Origin: an uncultured Bdellovibrionales bacterium | GTDB lineage: Bacteria > Patescibacteriota > Minisyncoccia > Moranbacterales > UBA1568 | Assembly (NCBI GenBank): GCA_964420045.1 | Contig: CAYQPQ010000001.1 | Coordinates: 21,444-85,443, forward strand | DNA length: 64,000 nt | Direction: 5' to 3' | Shown here: in pieces, positions 38,169-43,907 of the stretch | Layout of the letters: each line of letters opens with the position of its first letter | How positions within the stretch are numbered: position 1 is the first letter of the stretch | The notes under the pieces: model-generated | What the model was told of the DNA's origin: nothing | Databases searched by the model: none | The model's input: the letters and a program-made list of their open reading frames with translations, nothing else | Translations under genes and position numbers: made by a program

Positions 38169-38559
38169 CACACAGAAAACAGTCCGCACATGTAAGCACA
38201 GTATAACACATCCGACTCCGGAGAACCTTAAAAGGACTTCTCTCGTCCACAACACATGTTCATTATGTCAATGAGAGTTTCTTGGAAGAACGCGTGGAAT
38301 AAAATCCCTGCACCACTACGGCATTCAAACAGTGTCATAATGCACTTCTCCATATATCCCCCAAACCATCGGTTTGATAGTTTTTATACCCAATACTCCA
38401 TCATCTGTTCGGTTTTTCCCTTAAGAGAGAGAAACTTTACGAGCTCGACCATGTGCGCGATAATGAGGAGGCGCAAAACGGAATCGCGCACTCCGTGGGG
38501 GAGGTCGTATATCCACGGTTTTTCTTTTCTCCGAAATCGAAATCCTAGCCAAAAACCGT

Positions 38560-40638
38560 ATGAAACACAGACAGAAAGCGGAAACAGTATCCATCGAATC
38601 CGTGCGAAGACGAAGCGGACGCACGACTTCGTTCAATCCGTACAAGATCGTCAACGCTATCGAAAAAGCACTCTGTGCTACTGCCGAAGGAAACGAGAAA
38701 GACGCCGCCCGCATCGGCAAGAAGGTCGTCTCGCTCCTCGAAAAGAAAGCGCGACACTATGCCAAGCAGAATCTCGGACGATTCATTCCGAAAATCGAGG
38801 AAATTCAAGACCTCGTCGAAACCGTCCTCATGTCGGAAGGGTTTCACGAGACCGCCAAAGCCTATATTCTCTATCGCGAACAGCATCGCGAAGTCCGCGA
38901 AACGGAAGAATCACTCGTTAAAGCGGTGCACCTCGTCGACAAATATATCGGCAACCTCGACTGGCTCGTGAAGGAAAATGCCAATATGGCGTATTCCCTT
39001 CAGGGACTCAATAACTACGTCTCGAGCGCCATCAGCACGAAGTATTGGATGAACACTATCTATTCCAAGGAAGTGCGCGACGCTCATGAGTCCGGCGATC
39101 TGCACATTCACGATCTCCAGCTCATTTCCGCCTATTGCTGCGGCTGGGATCTCGAAGATCTCTTGCGACAAGGCTTCACCGGCGTCCCCGGCAAAGTCTC
39201 TTGCAAGCCCGCCAAGCACTTGGGATCCATCTTGGGACAGATGGTGAACTTTATCTACACACTCCAAGGCGAAGTTGCCGGCGCGCAGGCATTCTCCAAC
39301 TTCGACACGCTCCTCGCGCCGTTTATTCGGAAAGACAAACTTTCCTACGAACAGGTGAAGCAGGAAATCCAGTCATTTGTGTTCAACATGAATGTCTCGA
39401 CGCGCGTCGGATTCCAAACGCCGTTTTCAAACATCACGATGGATATTATTCCACCGAAGATTCTCGCGAAGAATCATGTCGTGATCGGCGGCGAACCGCA
39501 AAAAGAAACGTATGGCGATTTCGCACCCGAAATGGCAATGATCAATCGCGCCTTCGCCGAAGTGATGACCGAAGGCGACGCCTCGGGACGCATCTTCACC
39601 TTCCCCATCCCGACCTATAACATCACCAAGAACTTCGACTGGGAGAATCCCGCCTATGCGCCACTTTGGGAAATGACCGCCAAATACGGCATCCCCTATT
39701 TCGCCAACTTCGTGAATTCTGACATGAGCCCCGACGATGCGAGGAGCATGTGCTGCCGGTTGCGCTTGGACAACCGCGAACTCCGAAAGCGAGGCGGCGG
39801 ACTCTTCGGCGCCAATCCCTTGACCGGGTCGGTCGGCGTTGTCACCATCAACCTCCCGCGCATTGGTTACCTTGCCAAAAATGAGAAAGACTTTTTCAAG
39901 CGCCTCGACCGCCTCATGGATATCGCCAAAGAAAGCCTCGAAGTCAAACGGAAAATCGTCGAACAACTCACCGAGAAAGGACTCTACCCCTACACCAAGT
40001 TTTACCTTGGCAATATCAAGAAGCGCTTTCACCAATACTGGAAGAATCACTTCTCCACGATCGGTCTGGTCGGAACCAATGAGGCAATCAGCAATCTTAT
40101 CAAAACCGATATCACCACCGATAAAGGACAAGCTTTCGCCAAAAAAATTCTCACCCACATGCGTGAGCGGATCGGAACCTACCAAGAAAAGACCAACAAT
40201 CTCTACAATCTGGAAGCCACTCCCGCCGAAGGCACCGCCTACCGCCTCGCCCTCCTCGACAAGAAGTACTATCCCGATATCGTCGTCGCCAACGAGAAAG
40301 AAGTGCGTACCAAACACGCCGAACCCTACTACACCAATTCCTCCCACATCCCCGTCGGCTTTACCGACGACATCTTCGAAGCACTCGACCTCCAAGACGG
40401 ACTCCAAACGCAGTATACCGGCGGCACCGTCCTCCACGGATTCTTGGGAGAGCGCATCAATGACCCCACCATGGCGCGCACGCTCGTCCGCCGCATCGCC
40501 GAGAAGTATCATCTTCCCTACTTCACCCTCTCCCCCACCTTCAGCATCTGCCCCACTCACGGCTACCTCCCCGGCGAACACCAAACCTGCCCGCAGTGCA
40601 TAACCATGCCAACAGCGAAAGAGTATCAAAAAGCGTGA
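38560..40638 (+). CDS. nrdD: Anaerobic ribonucleoside-triphosphate reductase (class III) large polypeptide. It is truncated before the glycyl-radical motif.
   Basis: N-terminal ATP-cone, the catalytic core, and ...LPYFTLSPTFSICPTHGYLPGEHQTCPQC. The stop comes 12 aa later, with no RVxGY glycyl-radical motif. Confidence 0.88.
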   Translation: MKHRQKAETVSIESVRRRSGRTTSFNPYKIVNAIEKALCATAEGNEKDAARIGKKVVSLLEKKARHYAKQNLGRFIPKIEEIQDLVETVLMSEGFHETAKAYILYREQHREVRETEESLVKAVHLVDKYIGNLDWLVKENANMAYSLQGLNNYVSSAISTKYWMNTIYSKEVRDAHESGDLHIHDLQLISAYCCGWDLEDLLRQGFTGVPGKVSCKPAKHLGSILGQMVNFIYTLQGEVAGAQAFSNFDTLLAPFIRKDKLSYEQVKQEIQSFVFNMNVSTRVGFQTPFSNITMDIIPPKILAKNHVVIGGEPQKETYGDFAPEMAMINRAFAEVMTEGDASGRIFTFPIPTYNITKNFDWENPAYAPLWEMTAKYGIPYFANFVNSDMSPDDARSMCCRLRLDNRELRKRGGGLFGANPLTGSVGVVTINLPRIGYLAKNEKDFFKRLDRLMDIAKESLEVKRKIVEQLTEKGLYPYTKFYLGNIKKRFHQYWKNHFSTIGLVGTNEAISNLIKTDITTDKGQAFAKKILTHMRERIGTYQEKTNNLYNLEATPAEGTAYRLALLDKKYYPDIVVANEKEVRTKHAEPYYTNSSHIPVGFTDDIFEALDLQDGLQTQYTGGTVLHGFLGERINDPTMARTLVRRIAEKYHLPYFTLSPTFSICPTHGYLPGEHQTCPQCITMPTAKEYQKA

Positions 40639-40653
40639 AATTCACTCTTCCCT

Positions 40654-40932
40654 ATGGAAATAAAAGAATTACTCCAACAAGGGCGAGATATTTGGGGAAA
40701 TCAAAAATTTACCCTCGGACAGATTATTGTGTGCATGGGAAAAATATTCGGCGATATCTGTCGATGGGAACGCAACGCCACAAAAGACATAAAACTCCAT
40801 ACCGATCACGAGCTCAAGAAAGAACTCGGCAATATCATCTTCTCCACGATTCGATGGTGCGACGACTTAGGATACGACCCCGAAGAATGCATACGCATCG
40901 CCAGAGATTGCCAAAAAGAATTTAAAAAATAA
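40654..40932 (+). CDS. Small MazG-like nucleotide pyrophosphohydrolase-fold protein inserted between the nrdD fragments.
   Basis: 92 aa. ...TLGQIIVCMGKIFGDI ... ELGNIIFSTIRWCDDLGYDPEE matches the MazG/HisE helix pair. Confidence 0.5.
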   Translation: MEIKELLQQGRDIWGNQKFTLGQIIVCMGKIFGDICRWERNATKDIKLHTDHELKKELGNIIFSTIRWCDDLGYDPEECIRIARDCQKEFKK

Positions 40933-40949
40933 ATCGTAAGAAAAAATGT

Positions 40950-41201
40950 ATGCAAACGATAACATGTCACGACTGCGGAAAGACCCTCAAGAAGGGTGAG
41001 GAATATATGCCGTATGAGGCAAACGGGAATACGCTCGCAAAGTGCCGCGCCTGTCACGAGACAAAGCCGGAACTGACCGATTTTCAGAAAGCCGAAACCT
41101 ACACCCGCGTCGTCGGCTATATCCGCCCCGTTGAGCAATGGAACAAAGGCAAACAACAAGAATACACCGACCGCCTGGAGTACGCGCCCAGCGCCGCCTA
41201 G
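40950..41201 (+). CDS. Stand-alone NrdD C-terminal domain: a Zn-ribbon plus the glycyl-radical motif.
   Basis: CHDCG...CRAC Zn ribbon, then ETYTRVVGYIRPVEQWNKGKQQEYTDR. This is the canonical class III RNR glycyl-radical motif (RVxGY...WNxGKxxE). Confidence 0.7.
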   Translation: MQTITCHDCGKTLKKGEEYMPYEANGNTLAKCRACHETKPELTDFQKAETYTRVVGYIRPVEQWNKGKQQEYTDRLEYAPSAA

Positions 41202-41206
41202 GAAGT

Positions 41207-41914
41207 ATGTACCTCGCCGGATACCAACCACTCACTCTCCTCGACTACCCCGGGAAACTCGCTGCAACGGTGTTTACACTCGGGTGTGTGCTGCGATGCC
41301 CGTTTTGTCACAATCCGGAATTGATCGAGCCGAGCGAAGAATACCTTTCACAAGCGGGCGGAAACAAGACGGGTGAATTTCTGAAATTCCTTGAGACACG
41401 ACAAGGCAAACTTGATGGCGTGTGTATCACCGGCGGCGAGCCGACGCTTCATAGCGATCTCCTCGACTTTATACGAAAGATAAAGTCGCTTGGCTTCCTC
41501 GTAAAGCTCGACACCAATGGCGCCTTCCCTGACATCGTGAAAAAAATTTCCGAAACTAAGCTCGTTGATTTCTGGGCGATGGATATCAAGCACGCGCCCG
41601 AAAAATATCCGGCTGCATCCGGCAATGCCAATATCGCCATCGAGAACTTTCAAGAAAGCGTAAAAATCATCATGGAGAGCGGTGCAGACTATGAATTCCG
41701 CACGACGGTTGTCCCGGGAATTCACACCGAAAACGACTTCCAAGCAATCGGCGAATGGATACAGGGCGCCCGGCGATTCGCCCTTCAGGAATTCCGAGAT
41801 ATAAAGATATACGACCCCAACCTGGCAACACAAGCAAGAGGGTGTTCGATCGATCTCGAAATTGCCCGCACACACATCCTCCCATTTGTCGAACACGTTG
41901 AAATTCGCCGATAA
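41207..41914 (+). CDS. nrdG: Anaerobic ribonucleoside-triphosphate reductase activating protein (radical SAM).
   Basis: The CxxxCxxC cluster appears as GCVLRCPFCHNPEL. Also has ...GVCITGGEPTL. It starts 6 nt after the small ORF. Confidence 0.85.
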   Translation: MYLAGYQPLTLLDYPGKLAATVFTLGCVLRCPFCHNPELIEPSEEYLSQAGGNKTGEFLKFLETRQGKLDGVCITGGEPTLHSDLLDFIRKIKSLGFLVKLDTNGAFPDIVKKISETKLVDFWAMDIKHAPEKYPAASGNANIAIENFQESVKIIMESGADYEFRTTVVPGIHTENDFQAIGEWIQGARRFALQEFRDIKIYDPNLATQARGCSIDLEIARTHILPFVEHVEIRR

Positions 41915-41940
41915 GAACCTCTTGAAAAGGCCTCGAGTCA

Positions 41941-42060
41941 AAGAAAATCGGCTGAGCTCTTCTGGAGAAATTCTTTTTTGCGGCTTTCCTACCTACCGGC
42001 AGGCAGGCGTACGAAGTGTAAGACAAGCAAGAAAAGAATTTTTCCAGAAGAGCGGGCTTG
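41941..42060. repeat. Family-2 hairpin repeat in forward orientation, downstream of the convergent nrdG and znuB genes.
   Basis: GAGAAATTCTTTTTTGCGGCTTTCCTACCTACCGGCAGGCAGGCGTACGAAGTGTAAGACAAGCAAGAAAAGAATTTTTCCAG. It is the reverse complement of 43010-43105. Confidence 0.65.
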
Positions 42061-42157
42061 TTCAACAGACACTAAGGGTAATCGCGATTCAAAACACAAA
42101 ACATCAGCGCCAACCGCGCTGATGCGTTTCTTTCTCCCGACACAAGTATCCCAAGAA

Positions 42158-42958
42158 CTATCGTCTGTTTAATAACAGAGAAACTACGAACGCCGCGAGC
42201 ATAATCAGCACAATCGTTCCACCTGTCGCCAGGTTGAGATAGAACGATGCCACTATACCAAAAAGCACTGAAACTATCGAGATTCCCTCCGCCATCAGAA
42301 CTGTCCGCATAAATCCGCATCTCCATTGGAGTGCTGCAACAACCGGAATTACCATCAGCGCTGCAATGAGCAGTATGCCGACAATGGGAATAGCAACAGA
42401 CACTGTGAGTGCGGTCAGCAGTATCAACGCAAGATTGAGGAATCGCGTCGGCATGCCACTCACCTGTGCAGCTTCCTCATCGAATGTCACAAAAAGAAGC
42501 GGTTTGAACAATGCAAACAGCGAAAGAATAACCAGTGCCGATACGCCGCCAATCACAAGAATATCGGTTGACGTCACCGTTACGATACTGCCAAAAAGGT
42601 AGTTGAAGAGACTCGCATTGAACCCATTGGCAAGACTGAGAAGCACCACTGCAAGCGCCAAGCTCCCCGAAAGGAACAGTGCAAGTGCCGATTCGCCGGA
42701 AATCCGTTTCGAATTCCGCAGACGCTCAATGCCAAGAGAGGCAACGGTTGTCGCTCCCAGCGCGGCGAGAAGCGGATTGATTTTCAAGAGCAGACCGAGC
42801 GCAATACCGGCAAGCGACACATGAGAAAGTGTATCGGCAATCAGAGAATATCGCCGCAATACCAAAAATGTCCCGATAAGCGGCGCGACGCAAGCGACGA
42901 TAATACCCGCTTCGAGTCCGCGAACGATAAATCCGTATTGAAAAATATTTTCTACCAT
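42158..42958 (-). CDS. znuB: Metal (Zn/Mn) ABC transporter permease.
   Basis: ABC-3 family permease, 266 aa, 8 TM helices. Confidence 0.85.
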   Translation of the reverse strand: MVENIFQYGFIVRGLEAGIIVACVAPLIGTFLVLRRYSLIADTLSHVSLAGIALGLLLKINPLLAALGATTVASLGIERLRNSKRISGESALALFLSGSLALAVVLLSLANGFNASLFNYLFGSIVTVTSTDILVIGGVSALVILSLFALFKPLLFVTFDEEAAQVSGMPTRFLNLALILLTALTVSVAIPIVGILLIAALMVIPVVAALQWRCGFMRTVLMAEGISIVSVLFGIVASFYLNLATGGTIVLIMLAAFVVSLLLNRR

Positions 42959-43009
42959 AGAAAGAGGGTGCCAAGCAAACTTCGCAAGAATAGAAACGTG
43001 AACATGTTT

Positions 43010-43105
43010 CCGGAGAAAATTCTTTTTTTGCTTGTCTTACACTTCGTACGCCTGCCTGCCGGTAGGTAGGAAGGCCGCAGAAAAAAGAATTTTCTCCGGA
43101 AAAAC
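43010..43105. repeat. Family-2 hairpin repeat in reverse orientation, lying intercistronically between znuC and znuB.
   Basis: CCGGAGAAAATTCTTTTTTTGCTTGTCTTACACTTCGTACGCCTGCCTGCCGGTAGGTAGGAAGGCCGCAGAAAAAAGAATTTTCTCCGG. The terminal arms form a perfect long hairpin. Confidence 0.65.
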
Positions 43106-43130
43106 AGTCTTTCAGAAACATTCATAAACA

Positions 43131-43907
43131 TCAGGCATAGTGATGGCGATGCGGCTCTACCTTGATATCGCGCTCAAATATAGTCGTCGAAGCACTCTCT
43201 GCACGATACGCTTCGGGTGAGAGATAGCGAATCAGCGAACGATCAACGCAGGCAAGATGCGTCACCTCTCGTACAATGCGATCGATATCATGAGAGACCA
43301 GCACCAGCGTAATACCCGATTCGCCATTCAACTTTTTGAGAAGTGAATAGAAACCATCCTGTGTTTTCTTGTCGACACCAGTTGTTGGCTCATCGAGAAA
43401 GAGTATTTCCGGACGATTCACGAGCGCGCGCGCGATAAAAACCCGTTGCTGCTGCCCGCCGGACAGGTCTCCGATGAGGCGATCCCGAAAGTCCCACATG
43501 TCAACGCTCGTCAGCGAATCTTTCACTGCATCCCGATCAACATCGCGTAGTCTTTGGAAAATACTCCCACTCTTGTAACGCCCCATCATTGCTACCTCAT
43601 ACACGCTCACGGGAAAATTCACATCGAAATGCACCGCCGTCTGGGGCACATATCCTATCTTTTCCCATTCGGAAAATTCCCGGACATCAACACCAAAGAG
43701 CCTGACCGAGCCGCTCGAAAGCGGCAGGAGTCGAAGCATGATCTTGAGCAGTGTTGTTTTCCCGGCGCCATTCGGACCCACCAGCCCGACATAGTCTCCG
43801 CGACGAACCGCAAGCGTCACACCCTGAAGCGCATCCTCTTTCCCATCATAGGAAAAAGAGAGGTTCTCAACTTCAAGAATATTTTCAACGTTTATTGCCG
43901 AATGCAT
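43131..43907 (-). CDS. znuC: Metal ABC transporter ATP-binding protein.
   Basis: Walker A GPNGAGKTT, the ABC signature LSGGQQQR, and Walker B ILFLDEP. Confidence 0.85.
   Translation of the reverse strand: MHSAINVENILEVENLSFSYDGKEDALQGVTLAVRRGDYVGLVGPNGAGKTTLLKIMLRLLPLSSGSVRLFGVDVREFSEWEKIGYVPQTAVHFDVNFPVSVYEVAMMGRYKSGSIFQRLRDVDRDAVKDSLTSVDMWDFRDRLIGDLSGGQQQRVFIARALVNRPEILFLDEPTTGVDKKTQDGFYSLLKKLNGESGITLVLVSHDIDRIVREVTHLACVDRSLIRYLSPEAYRAESASTTIFERDIKVEPHRHHYA

Follow-up and report, generated by a model that had tools for sequence, protein, structure and literature searches.

A probable two-subunit class III ribonucleotide reductase with a stand-alone glycyl-radical protein in Patescibacteria

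We analysed a 64,000-nucleotide (nt) stretch of contig CAYQPQ010000001.1, from an uncultured member of the Patescibacteria, or candidate phyla radiation (CPR). This whole stretch, called the window below, encodes a class III ribonucleotide reductase (RNR) whose catalytic gene, nrdD, ends before the glycyl-radical loop. The loop is found on a separate open reading frame (ORF) of 83 amino acids (aa), which lies downstream of a 92-aa ORF with a predicted MazG fold and just ahead of the activase gene nrdG. Gene structure, conservation, co-occurrence and selection indicate that the locus probably specifies a two-subunit class III RNR, in which a stand-alone radical gene came first, the built-in radical domain decayed and the MazG-fold gene was recruited later. 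An autonomous radical protein of the NrdD type and an obligately two-piece class III reductase both appear to be widespread and undescribed. Searches of the open-access literature and preprints for split NrdD, an NrdD spare part and NrdD in Patescibacteria returned nothing relevant; a description in a subscription journal is possible.

Catalytic and radical domains on separate polypeptides

The large ORF ends 12 residues beyond its zinc site (...FSICPTHGYLPGEHQTCPQC-ITMPTAKEYQKA*), where the radical loop would be expected to follow, as a preliminary description of this DNA had stated. All that this description said about the sequence itself was confirmed. It matches the Pfam model NRDD (PF13597) at positions 1–528 of 562 (614.6 bits, cut-off 26.2) and the NCBIfam model NF006126 at positions 3–649 of 684 (1043.7 bits, cut-off 548), so only the last ~35 positions are missing. 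Residues 171–681 align to chain residues 101–609 of the T. maritima NrdD structure 4coi, and the finger-loop motif aligns with the finger loop of the P. copri NrdD structure 8p23. The motifs S-M-C398-C399-R and Y-C193-C194-G-W-D are invariant in 107 aligned homologues, 28 truncated ones included. The large ORF lacks the RVxGY motif that an NrdD would carry on the same polypeptide, and no loop of this type was found in any frame between the ORFs or elsewhere in the window, except in the small ORF (41106). The gene is under purifying selection, with a pairwise ratio of non-synonymous to synonymous substitution rates (dN/dS) of 0.033 against a related locus, L001.

The missing part is encoded by the 83-aa ORF, which the preliminary description had correctly recognised as an independent gene with a zinc ribbon and a radical motif. 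The zinc ribbon (C6xxC9...C32xxC35, 40965–41054) is followed by the radical loop R53-V-V-G56-Y, with the codon for the expected radical glycine, G56, at 41115–41117. The ORF matches PF13597 at positions 510–562 of 562 (E 2.6e-12) and NF006126 at positions 643–682 of 684. A profile built from its family aligns, at positions 44–79, to 4coi residues 609–645, including the RIVGY motif, although weakly (E 0.012); in a search of the PDB sequences, T. maritima NrdD, at the value just given, was the sole match of the profile, and no sequence reached E ≤ 0.01. Because the large chain reaches 4coi residue 609 and the small family begins there, the two products together tile canonical NrdD. The nrdG gene starts at 41207, 5 nt past the stop codon of the small ORF, and its product matches TIGR02495 with 202 bits (cut-off 131), as expected of the cognate activase.

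The cysteine pairs in the zinc ribbon of the small protein are spaced CxxC-22-CxxC, compared with CxxH-10-CxxC in NrdD, and a Pfam search gave no match to PF01228, the glycyl-radical domain of the pyruvate formate-lyase (PFL) type. An AlphaFold2 (AF2) model of the small protein shows zinc-ribbon hairpins, a strand (49–52), the glycine loop, a second strand (57–60) and a helix (61–74), a predicted hairpin-plus-helix shape of the kind expected of a radical domain. A MAFFT alignment that included the small homologues was set aside; their N-terminal halves had fallen on the zinc region of NrdD.

A family of stand-alone radical proteins

In a word-indexed search, all 85 homologue clusters of the small ORF were 64–107 aa long, and every lineage named at source was a member of the CPR (Moraniibacteria, Pacebacteria, Parcubacteria, Portnoybacteria and Staskawiczbacteria). 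When 1.84 billion representatives were searched exhaustively with the family profile, 4307 matched; the best 150 representatives at the 50% identity clustering level were examined, and all were small stand-alone proteins of 42–159 aa. At least 107 of these 150 carry two CxxC motifs and the radical loop, and ~15 are proteins of 51–73 aa that comprise the radical domain alone. C6, C9, C32, C35, R53, V55 and G56-Y-I-R-P60, plus further C-terminal positions, are invariant in 38 family sequences, and pairwise dN/dS values of 0.03–0.11 for the small gene indicate purifying selection. Judged by these sequence matches, the 83-aa protein is a member of a large stand-alone family found mostly in Patescibacteria. 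Where ORFs of ~85 aa have a source name, most are annotated as 'anaerobic ribonucleoside-triphosphate reductase', which constitutes an annotation problem.

A scan of one genome per species yielded 80 loci and, with contigs fetched earlier, 87 loci were classified. Three arrangements involve the small gene. State A, at 16 of the 87 loci (e.g., L003, L012 and L021), has the small gene and, in most cases, nrdG after a full-length NrdD whose ...EVYSRVVGYIRPVEQWN... tail still includes an RVVGY loop. State B, the type to which the window locus conforms, was also found at 16 loci (e.g., L001, L011 and L024); here NrdD ends shortly past CPxC and is followed by the small gene and usually by nrdG. In state C, at 13 loci, the small gene is not linked to nrdD, and one metagenome-assembled genome (MAG) has the small gene at L037, away from its canonical nrdD-nrdG pair at L083. 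Truncated NrdDs selected independently of the small gene had, in 4/4 cases, a PF13597-bearing ORF of 84–105 aa just downstream.

Truncation is common among close relatives, affecting 35 of the 120 nearest NrdD clusters (~30%), and the labelling of such proteins as complete is a second annotation problem. State-B tails end at the position of the glycine or a few residues away and retain recognisable relics of the preceding strand (Table 1). The ending of the window protein, KEY[QKR][KR][AV] (e.g., KEYQKA), is conserved in 11 close homologues, with a variable linker upstream. E. coli NrdD is cleaved at Gly681. Oxygen cleavage of glycyl-radical proteins takes place at the radical glycine (PMC13450708). 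Because their tails end near this residue, the truncated NrdDs seem at sequence level to resemble a genetically fixed form of the large oxygen-cleavage fragment.

Proposed mechanism and the fate of the truncated chain

We hypothesize that the 692-aa NrdD provides the zinc site, the ATP-cone and a catalytic barrel that bears the finger-loop cysteines. The 83-aa protein would provide the glycyl-radical domain in trans, as the preliminary description had suggested and as it must do if the enzyme works. NrdG would abstract a hydrogen from Gly56 of the small protein. The hairpin bearing Gly56 would then dock in the NrdD barrel beside Cys398/399, allowing a thiyl radical to form and nucleotides to be reduced, and catalysis would thereafter proceed as in canonical class III enzymes. 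If oxygen cleaved the radical protein at its glycine, replacing the 83-aa piece would be enough. If this is true, an essential enzyme is divided into a large, stable catalytic subunit and a cheap, replaceable radical subunit of 83 aa, which would represent an adaptation of oxygen-exposed, genome-reduced anaerobes.

Several points weigh against a functional two-subunit enzyme. Physical assembly of the two chains, activation by NrdG, catalytic activity and a role in repair are what we infer from the locus and its relatives. In addition to the weak alignment of the small family to T. maritima NrdD, the AF2 model of the small protein has moderate confidence (pLDDT 73.6), and a fold search with it returned only non-significant matches to zinc-ribbon proteins. 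Our view of the genome is limited to the 64-kb window, so that another RNR is possible. The truncated nrdD of locus L008 is broken by frameshifts, which would mean that the system can be lost. The limits of the tree and of the permutation test described below count in the same direction.

An alternative that we consider unlikely is that the truncated NrdD is dead or otherwise employed and that the small protein serves as a spare part for an intact NrdD encoded elsewhere, a decoy, a regulator or a radical reservoir for NrdG. The occurrence of the small protein alongside intact NrdD in state-A and state-C genomes does imply that its ancestral role needed no truncated partner. However, the low dN/dS of the truncated gene reflects strong purifying selection, its catalytic motifs are all invariant, it lies in a compact operon that also contains the small gene and nrdG, and the small gene lies just 3' of each of the four truncated genes that were sampled independently. 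CPR genomes are also small and seldom retain two copies of a 2-kb gene. A working two-subunit enzyme remains the reading that we favour.

Locus L008 (3596–6339 in CP064994.1, a complete Moraniibacteriota genome) has its truncated nrdD in three overlapping frames. Its small ORF has an aberrant C-terminal extension of 112 aa, and nrdG lies 1.8 kb further on. Either the system as a whole has undergone pseudogenisation, or indel errors in the sequence were left uncorrected.

Origin of the split

The preliminary description attributed the split to gene fracture by a selfish MazG-like gene, in the manner of the mobE-split nrdA of phage Aeh1, which would make the 83-aa ORF the detached C-terminus of a formerly intact nrdD. 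The MazG-like gene does lie exactly between the two ORFs and, in locus L095, a copy of ~50 bp of the nrdD 3' end just 5' of it hints at recombination. The comparison with relatives nevertheless makes this origin very improbable. The closest relative without the MazG-like gene, L001, whose small protein is 83% identical, has the same truncated nrdD and 83-aa ORF, separated by 168 bp that include a palindromic element; this relative is thus split identically, whereas fracture by insertion would predict an intact gene where the insert is lacking. No homologue of the 92-aa gene was found at any of the 87 loci, including all 16 with a truncated nrdD, and the split therefore neither requires nor follows from the MazG-like gene. 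The 16 loci with the small gene beside a full-length nrdD further imply that the small gene is an extra copy and not a detached piece, in agreement with the distinct architecture of its zinc ribbon.

Features of the inserted gene are also at odds with a selfish origin. Its family is very widespread in the CPR in unrelated contexts, and no repeats flank it: within 40500–43300 only short pairs at chance level were detected, none of them flanking. We found no mobility gene or target-site duplication at the gene; PHROG matches were marginal and no Pfam mobility domain was matched. Locus L102 has a different ORF of 196 aa with no Pfam hit in the same gap (L102:5108–5698), and L095 has a 105-aa ORF of largely hydrophobic sequence between the small gene and nrdG (L095:4560–4877). 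It seems that genes are readily inserted at the junctions of this operon.

The preliminary description had also proposed a duplication-insertion event on account of the second zinc ribbon. Our data support a duplication behind this ribbon, and it is insertion as the cause of the split that must be abandoned. In state A, the radical domain of the small protein has a mean identity of 83% to the built-in domain of its own genome and of 72% to those of other genomes. The own-genome match ranks first at 11 of 15 state-A loci (permutation p ~5e-5, a test that ignores phylogenetic non-independence). This co-variation is evidence that the small protein acts on the NrdD of its own genome. The small and built-in copies show a synonymous divergence of as little as 0.11 (L021, 97% nucleotide identity) and as much as 0.95, with values of ~0.9 in L016, L029 and L030. 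These divergence values indicate gene conversion from time to time as well as long coexistence of the two copies under selection, and state A is therefore a stable arrangement rather than a transient duplication.

Fitch parsimony on a neighbour-joining tree of the NrdD core region, which carries no support values, gives at least eight changes between full-length and truncated states. Because of this lack of support, several independent losses of the built-in domain are proposed only tentatively. At the sequence level, the truncated tails have the appearance of a built-in domain that became redundant and decayed. Most likely, then, an autonomous NrdD-derived radical-domain gene came first and the cis domain decayed afterwards, apparently repeatedly.

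We envisage three steps. A stand-alone gene for a zinc ribbon and radical domain would have arisen first; many Patescibacteria retain it together with a full-length nrdD, and in these state-A genomes its product is most likely a spare part similar to GrcA. The built-in domain of nrdD would then have decayed in several lineages, including that of the window, making the small protein obligatory. Finally, the MazG-fold gene would have been recruited between nrdD and the small gene in the sub-clade of the window, without being the cause of the split.

Rejoining of the two ORFs by an intron, intein trans-splicing, frameshifting or readthrough can be given almost no weight. Precedents exist, since T4 nrdD carries a group I intron and several related NrdDs of 1036–1143 aa have large internal insertions that are probably inteins. 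Yet an Rfam scan of the window detected one tRNA, far from the nrdD locus, and no intron, and a conserved ORF of 279 nt under selection intervenes between the pieces. The small ORF has a Met start and a complete zinc ribbon of its own, whereas the large ORF aligns to NrdD through its last residues and leaves no space for an intein N-fragment. The distance from nrdD to the small gene is anywhere from -50 to 175 nt, depending on the locus, and 13 loci have the small gene unlinked. A split intein was considered separately and ruled out because the large ORF aligns to NrdD right up to its own end and by the zinc ribbon that opens the small ORF throughout its family.

A sequencing or assembly artefact or a recent pseudogene, for which one could cite the uncultured source of the window and the frameshifted nrdD of L008, has a negligible probability: an assembly error is excluded by the identity of the 692-aa NrdD to protein P0354, which represents 27 member sequences in a public protein collection, and by the same order of truncated nrdD, 92-aa gene, 83-aa gene and nrdG in the independent assemblies L088–L091 and L095; the low dN/dS values and the conserved tails of 35 truncated clusters also count against this reading.

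The insertions in the longer NrdDs span ~310–420 aa and occur at three different alignment sites (L051, L059, L072, L079 and L082). In L072, for example, the alignment covers query residues 12–193 and then 190–681. These insertions are most likely inteins.

The MazG-fold gene

The 92-aa protein between the two fragments had been assigned a MazG fold in the preliminary description, and the label holds because the AF2 model is confident (mean pLDDT 88.7) and its fold matches in the PDB are of MazG type. Among the best-ranked Foldseek matches, all those inspected were MazG-type all-alpha nucleoside triphosphate (NTP) pyrophosphatases (5ie9, YpjD, MazG, 1vmg and DCTPP1; TM 0.65–0.75, probability 0.9–1.0, E 0.04–1). 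At the sequence level, there was no Pfam hit at E ≤ 0.1 for the window protein. MazG matches around KKELGNIIF...DDLG were weak and below every curated threshold, and 19 of 24 family members matched PF12643 only below threshold (best E 0.0026). The predicted four- or five-helix fold is shared with MazG-type pyrophosphohydrolases such as 5ie9, YpjD (2gta), E. coli MazG (3cra) and DCTPP1. In the 92-aa protein, however, the canonical acidic EExxE...ExxD metal ligands are mostly replaced (EEMGE of 5ie9 corresponds to VRLGK and EELGD to KELGN, with only E57 retained), and pyrophosphatase activity is therefore uncertain.

The family includes >1000 homologue clusters, the best 120 of which are 73–98% identical to the window protein; named clusters are called 'hypothetical'. 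Its invariant residues are G29, K30, G33, D34, C36, R40, D45, H49, K55–N60 and D70–D71, and the pattern GK..GD.C...R, D45, H49, KKELGN, DD, PEE.C describes a family without a Pfam model. Members occur among thymidylate kinase, NUDIX, HD and HIT genes (L092:4001–4282) and next to an AAA_28 gene (L093:4001–4279), and pairwise dN/dS values of 0.12–0.25 indicate purifying selection. The 92-aa gene is most readily interpreted as a conserved gene of the CPR that is probably nucleotide-related and joined the nrd operon in the sub-clade of the window. In L095 (3880–4000), the ~50 bp of the nrdD 3' end (...CCCGCAATGCATAGCCGCACCCGC.CAGAAAGAGTA.CAAAAAGCATGA) duplicated between the nrdD stop and the MazG-like gene may be a recombination scar from its entry into the operon; this duplication is absent from the window.

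Comparison with known systems

The closest parallels to the small protein are GrcA/YfiD of E. coli and Y06I of T4, which are likewise stand-alone duplicates of the C-terminal glycyl-radical domain of a large enzyme, and the spare-part analogy drawn in the preliminary description is apt. In many genomes these proteins coexist with the full-length parent, as the small family does at 16 loci and in one MAG. Free YfiD/GrcA is a substrate of the PFL-activating enzyme and, once activated, takes the place of the PFL domain that was cleaved; according to a 2026 review spare-part proteins are known only for formate-lyases (PMC13450708). Given its adjacency to nrdG and its co-variation with the built-in domain, the small protein, like GrcA, is presumably activated by the activase of its parent. 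However, GrcA is homologous to the PFL C-terminus (PF01228) and the small protein to the NrdD C-terminus (PF13597), so that the latter is not a member of the GrcA family; the N-terminus is disordered in GrcA and a zinc ribbon in the small protein. Unlike the parent of GrcA, the NrdD of the window and those of ~30% of close relatives have lost their own radical domain, and here the small protein would be an obligate subunit and not a repair part.

All parts of a canonical NrdD and NrdG (T4, E. coli, T. maritima 4coi and P. copri 8p23) are present at the window locus, including the ATP-cone, barrel, finger-loop cysteines, zinc site, RVxGY loop and an adjacent radical S-adenosylmethionine (SAM) activase. 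In contrast to the canonical enzyme, the radical loop resides on a second polypeptide with its own zinc ribbon and the large chain ends at about the position of the glycine. Two genes also encode the catalytic chain of NrdJa/NrdJb, the class II RNR of P. aeruginosa, and of the mobE-split nrdA of Aeh1, and in both cases the products must assemble. Each of these is a single gene simply split in two, in Aeh1 by a homing-endonuclease gene, whereas the small gene of the window is an extra copy that most likely predates the loss of the built-in domain, and the gene in between is not a mobile one. In other lineages, nrdD has undergone simple fission (type D).

We lean, by a narrow measure, towards the broader proposal that the first spare part, or 'radical cartridge', for a glycyl-radical enzyme other than PFL is present in Patescibacteria and in at least one archaeal virus. 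This part would act as a backup in some genomes and would repeatedly have become the sole radical carrier in others. For class III RNR, the locus and those related to it provide a concrete candidate for such a part that can be cloned. The relatives form a natural series from an intact enzyme with a spare part to a truncated enzyme with an obligate subunit and, elsewhere, plain fission with a mini-protein of ~50 aa. This series makes it possible to test the activation of a free radical domain by NrdG, its docking in trans into an RNR barrel and the repair of oxygen-sensitive enzymes in minimal genomes.

Operon layout and minor observations

The genes at the locus are separated by gaps of 15, 17 and 5 nt, in gene order, and nrdG follows the small ORF immediately, as first described (Table 1). 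A scan found no terminator-like site in the gaps between nrdD, the MazG-like gene, the small gene and nrdG; the sole plus-strand site within 38560–41914 is weak and internal to nrdG (41281–41302). Because the first hairpin after the genes lies at 42102–42124, a single transcript of all four is suggested. Promoter-like sites in the region are no more numerous than expected from shuffled sequence, and the site upstream of nrdD is a candidate only.

Table 1 Coordinates and properties of features at the nrdD locus, with C-terminal tails of selected relatives.
Feature	Position	Strand	Description
nrdD-large	38560–40638	+	692 aa; class III RNR catalytic subunit without glycyl-radical loop
NrdD-large domains			ATP-cone, aa 14–111; barrel; finger loop SMCCR, aa 396–400; Zn site C664/H667/C678/C681
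Relic tail ITMPTAKEYQKA	40603–40635	+	Decayed remnant of the strand (xEVYSRV) preceding the radical Gly in full-length relatives
C-terminal tails			Full-length TEVYSRVVGY; window TAKEYQKA*; L011 STVYLKVVMAD*; L024 TEVFLKVGEE...
MazG-fold ORF	40654–40932	+	92 aa, 279 nt; unannotated CPR family, very widespread
Small ORF	40950–41201	+	83 aa; NrdD-type autonomous glycyl-radical protein
nrdG	41207–41914	+	Radical-SAM activase; TIGR02495 (NrdG2) E 5.7e-60, Radical_SAM
Promoter-like candidate 5' of nrdD	38436–38464	+	TTTACG-17-GATAAT, 9/12 consensus matches, weak
Terminator-like GC hairpin	42102–42124	both	First 3' of the four genes

A palindromic element of ~100 nt occurs downstream in two inverted copies (41956–42053 and 43007–43102) on either side of an ABC-3 permease gene. 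Terminal inverted repeats of 22 nt enclose a core of ~54 nt, and the copies share 69 nt at 96%. An akin palindrome occupies the spacer between nrdD and the small gene in L001 (L001:4880–4960). The element looks like an intergenic repeat of this lineage, similar to repetitive extragenic palindromic (REP) sequences or miniature inverted-repeat transposable elements (MITEs).

A second kind of split nrdD was observed in MAGs of Desulfuromonadaceae and Deltaproteobacteria and in a few others (L070:5150–5450, L078:2400–2700, L076, L080:5850–6150 and L062:5880–6130). Here nrdD ends right after or within the zinc site and is followed by a mini-ORF of ~50–60 aa with its own Shine-Dalgarno sequence and ATG (e.g., MSQEKCSEKTEVYSRVVGFFRPVQQWNKGK...), which encodes the radical loop only and no zinc ribbon. 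The deltaproteobacterial large chain ends in CPY without the fourth zinc ligand, which an N-terminal cysteine of the mini-protein might supply. Similar proteins of 51–73 aa are found among the database representatives (P0341, P0345–P0347 and P0351).

Many small proteins (L003, L011–L017 and L021–L023) end in a cysteine pair (...ACC, ...CGC or ...CSC), as do some full-length NrdD tails (...CESC and ...CQCK). These endings recall the C-terminal redox-shuttle cysteines of class I and class II reductases. The small protein of the window ends in ...APSAA, without such a pair.

The archaeal virus ANMV-1 (KP703175.1) encodes a stand-alone family member of 144 aa, AJP62049.1 (L098:3857–4291; CHDCG...KCPKC...YSRIVGYLRPVNQWNKGK), which is recorded as 'anaerobic ribonucleoside triphosphate reductase'. 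No full-length nrdD is annotated within the 8.3-kb stretch of ANMV-1 examined. The virus was taken in 2015 to encode the oxygen-sensitive reductase, and the inference on host physiology made there rested on the 144-aa ORF so annotated (PMC4372165). As a viral copy of an NrdD-type radical domain, this ORF parallels the PFL-type Y06I of T4.

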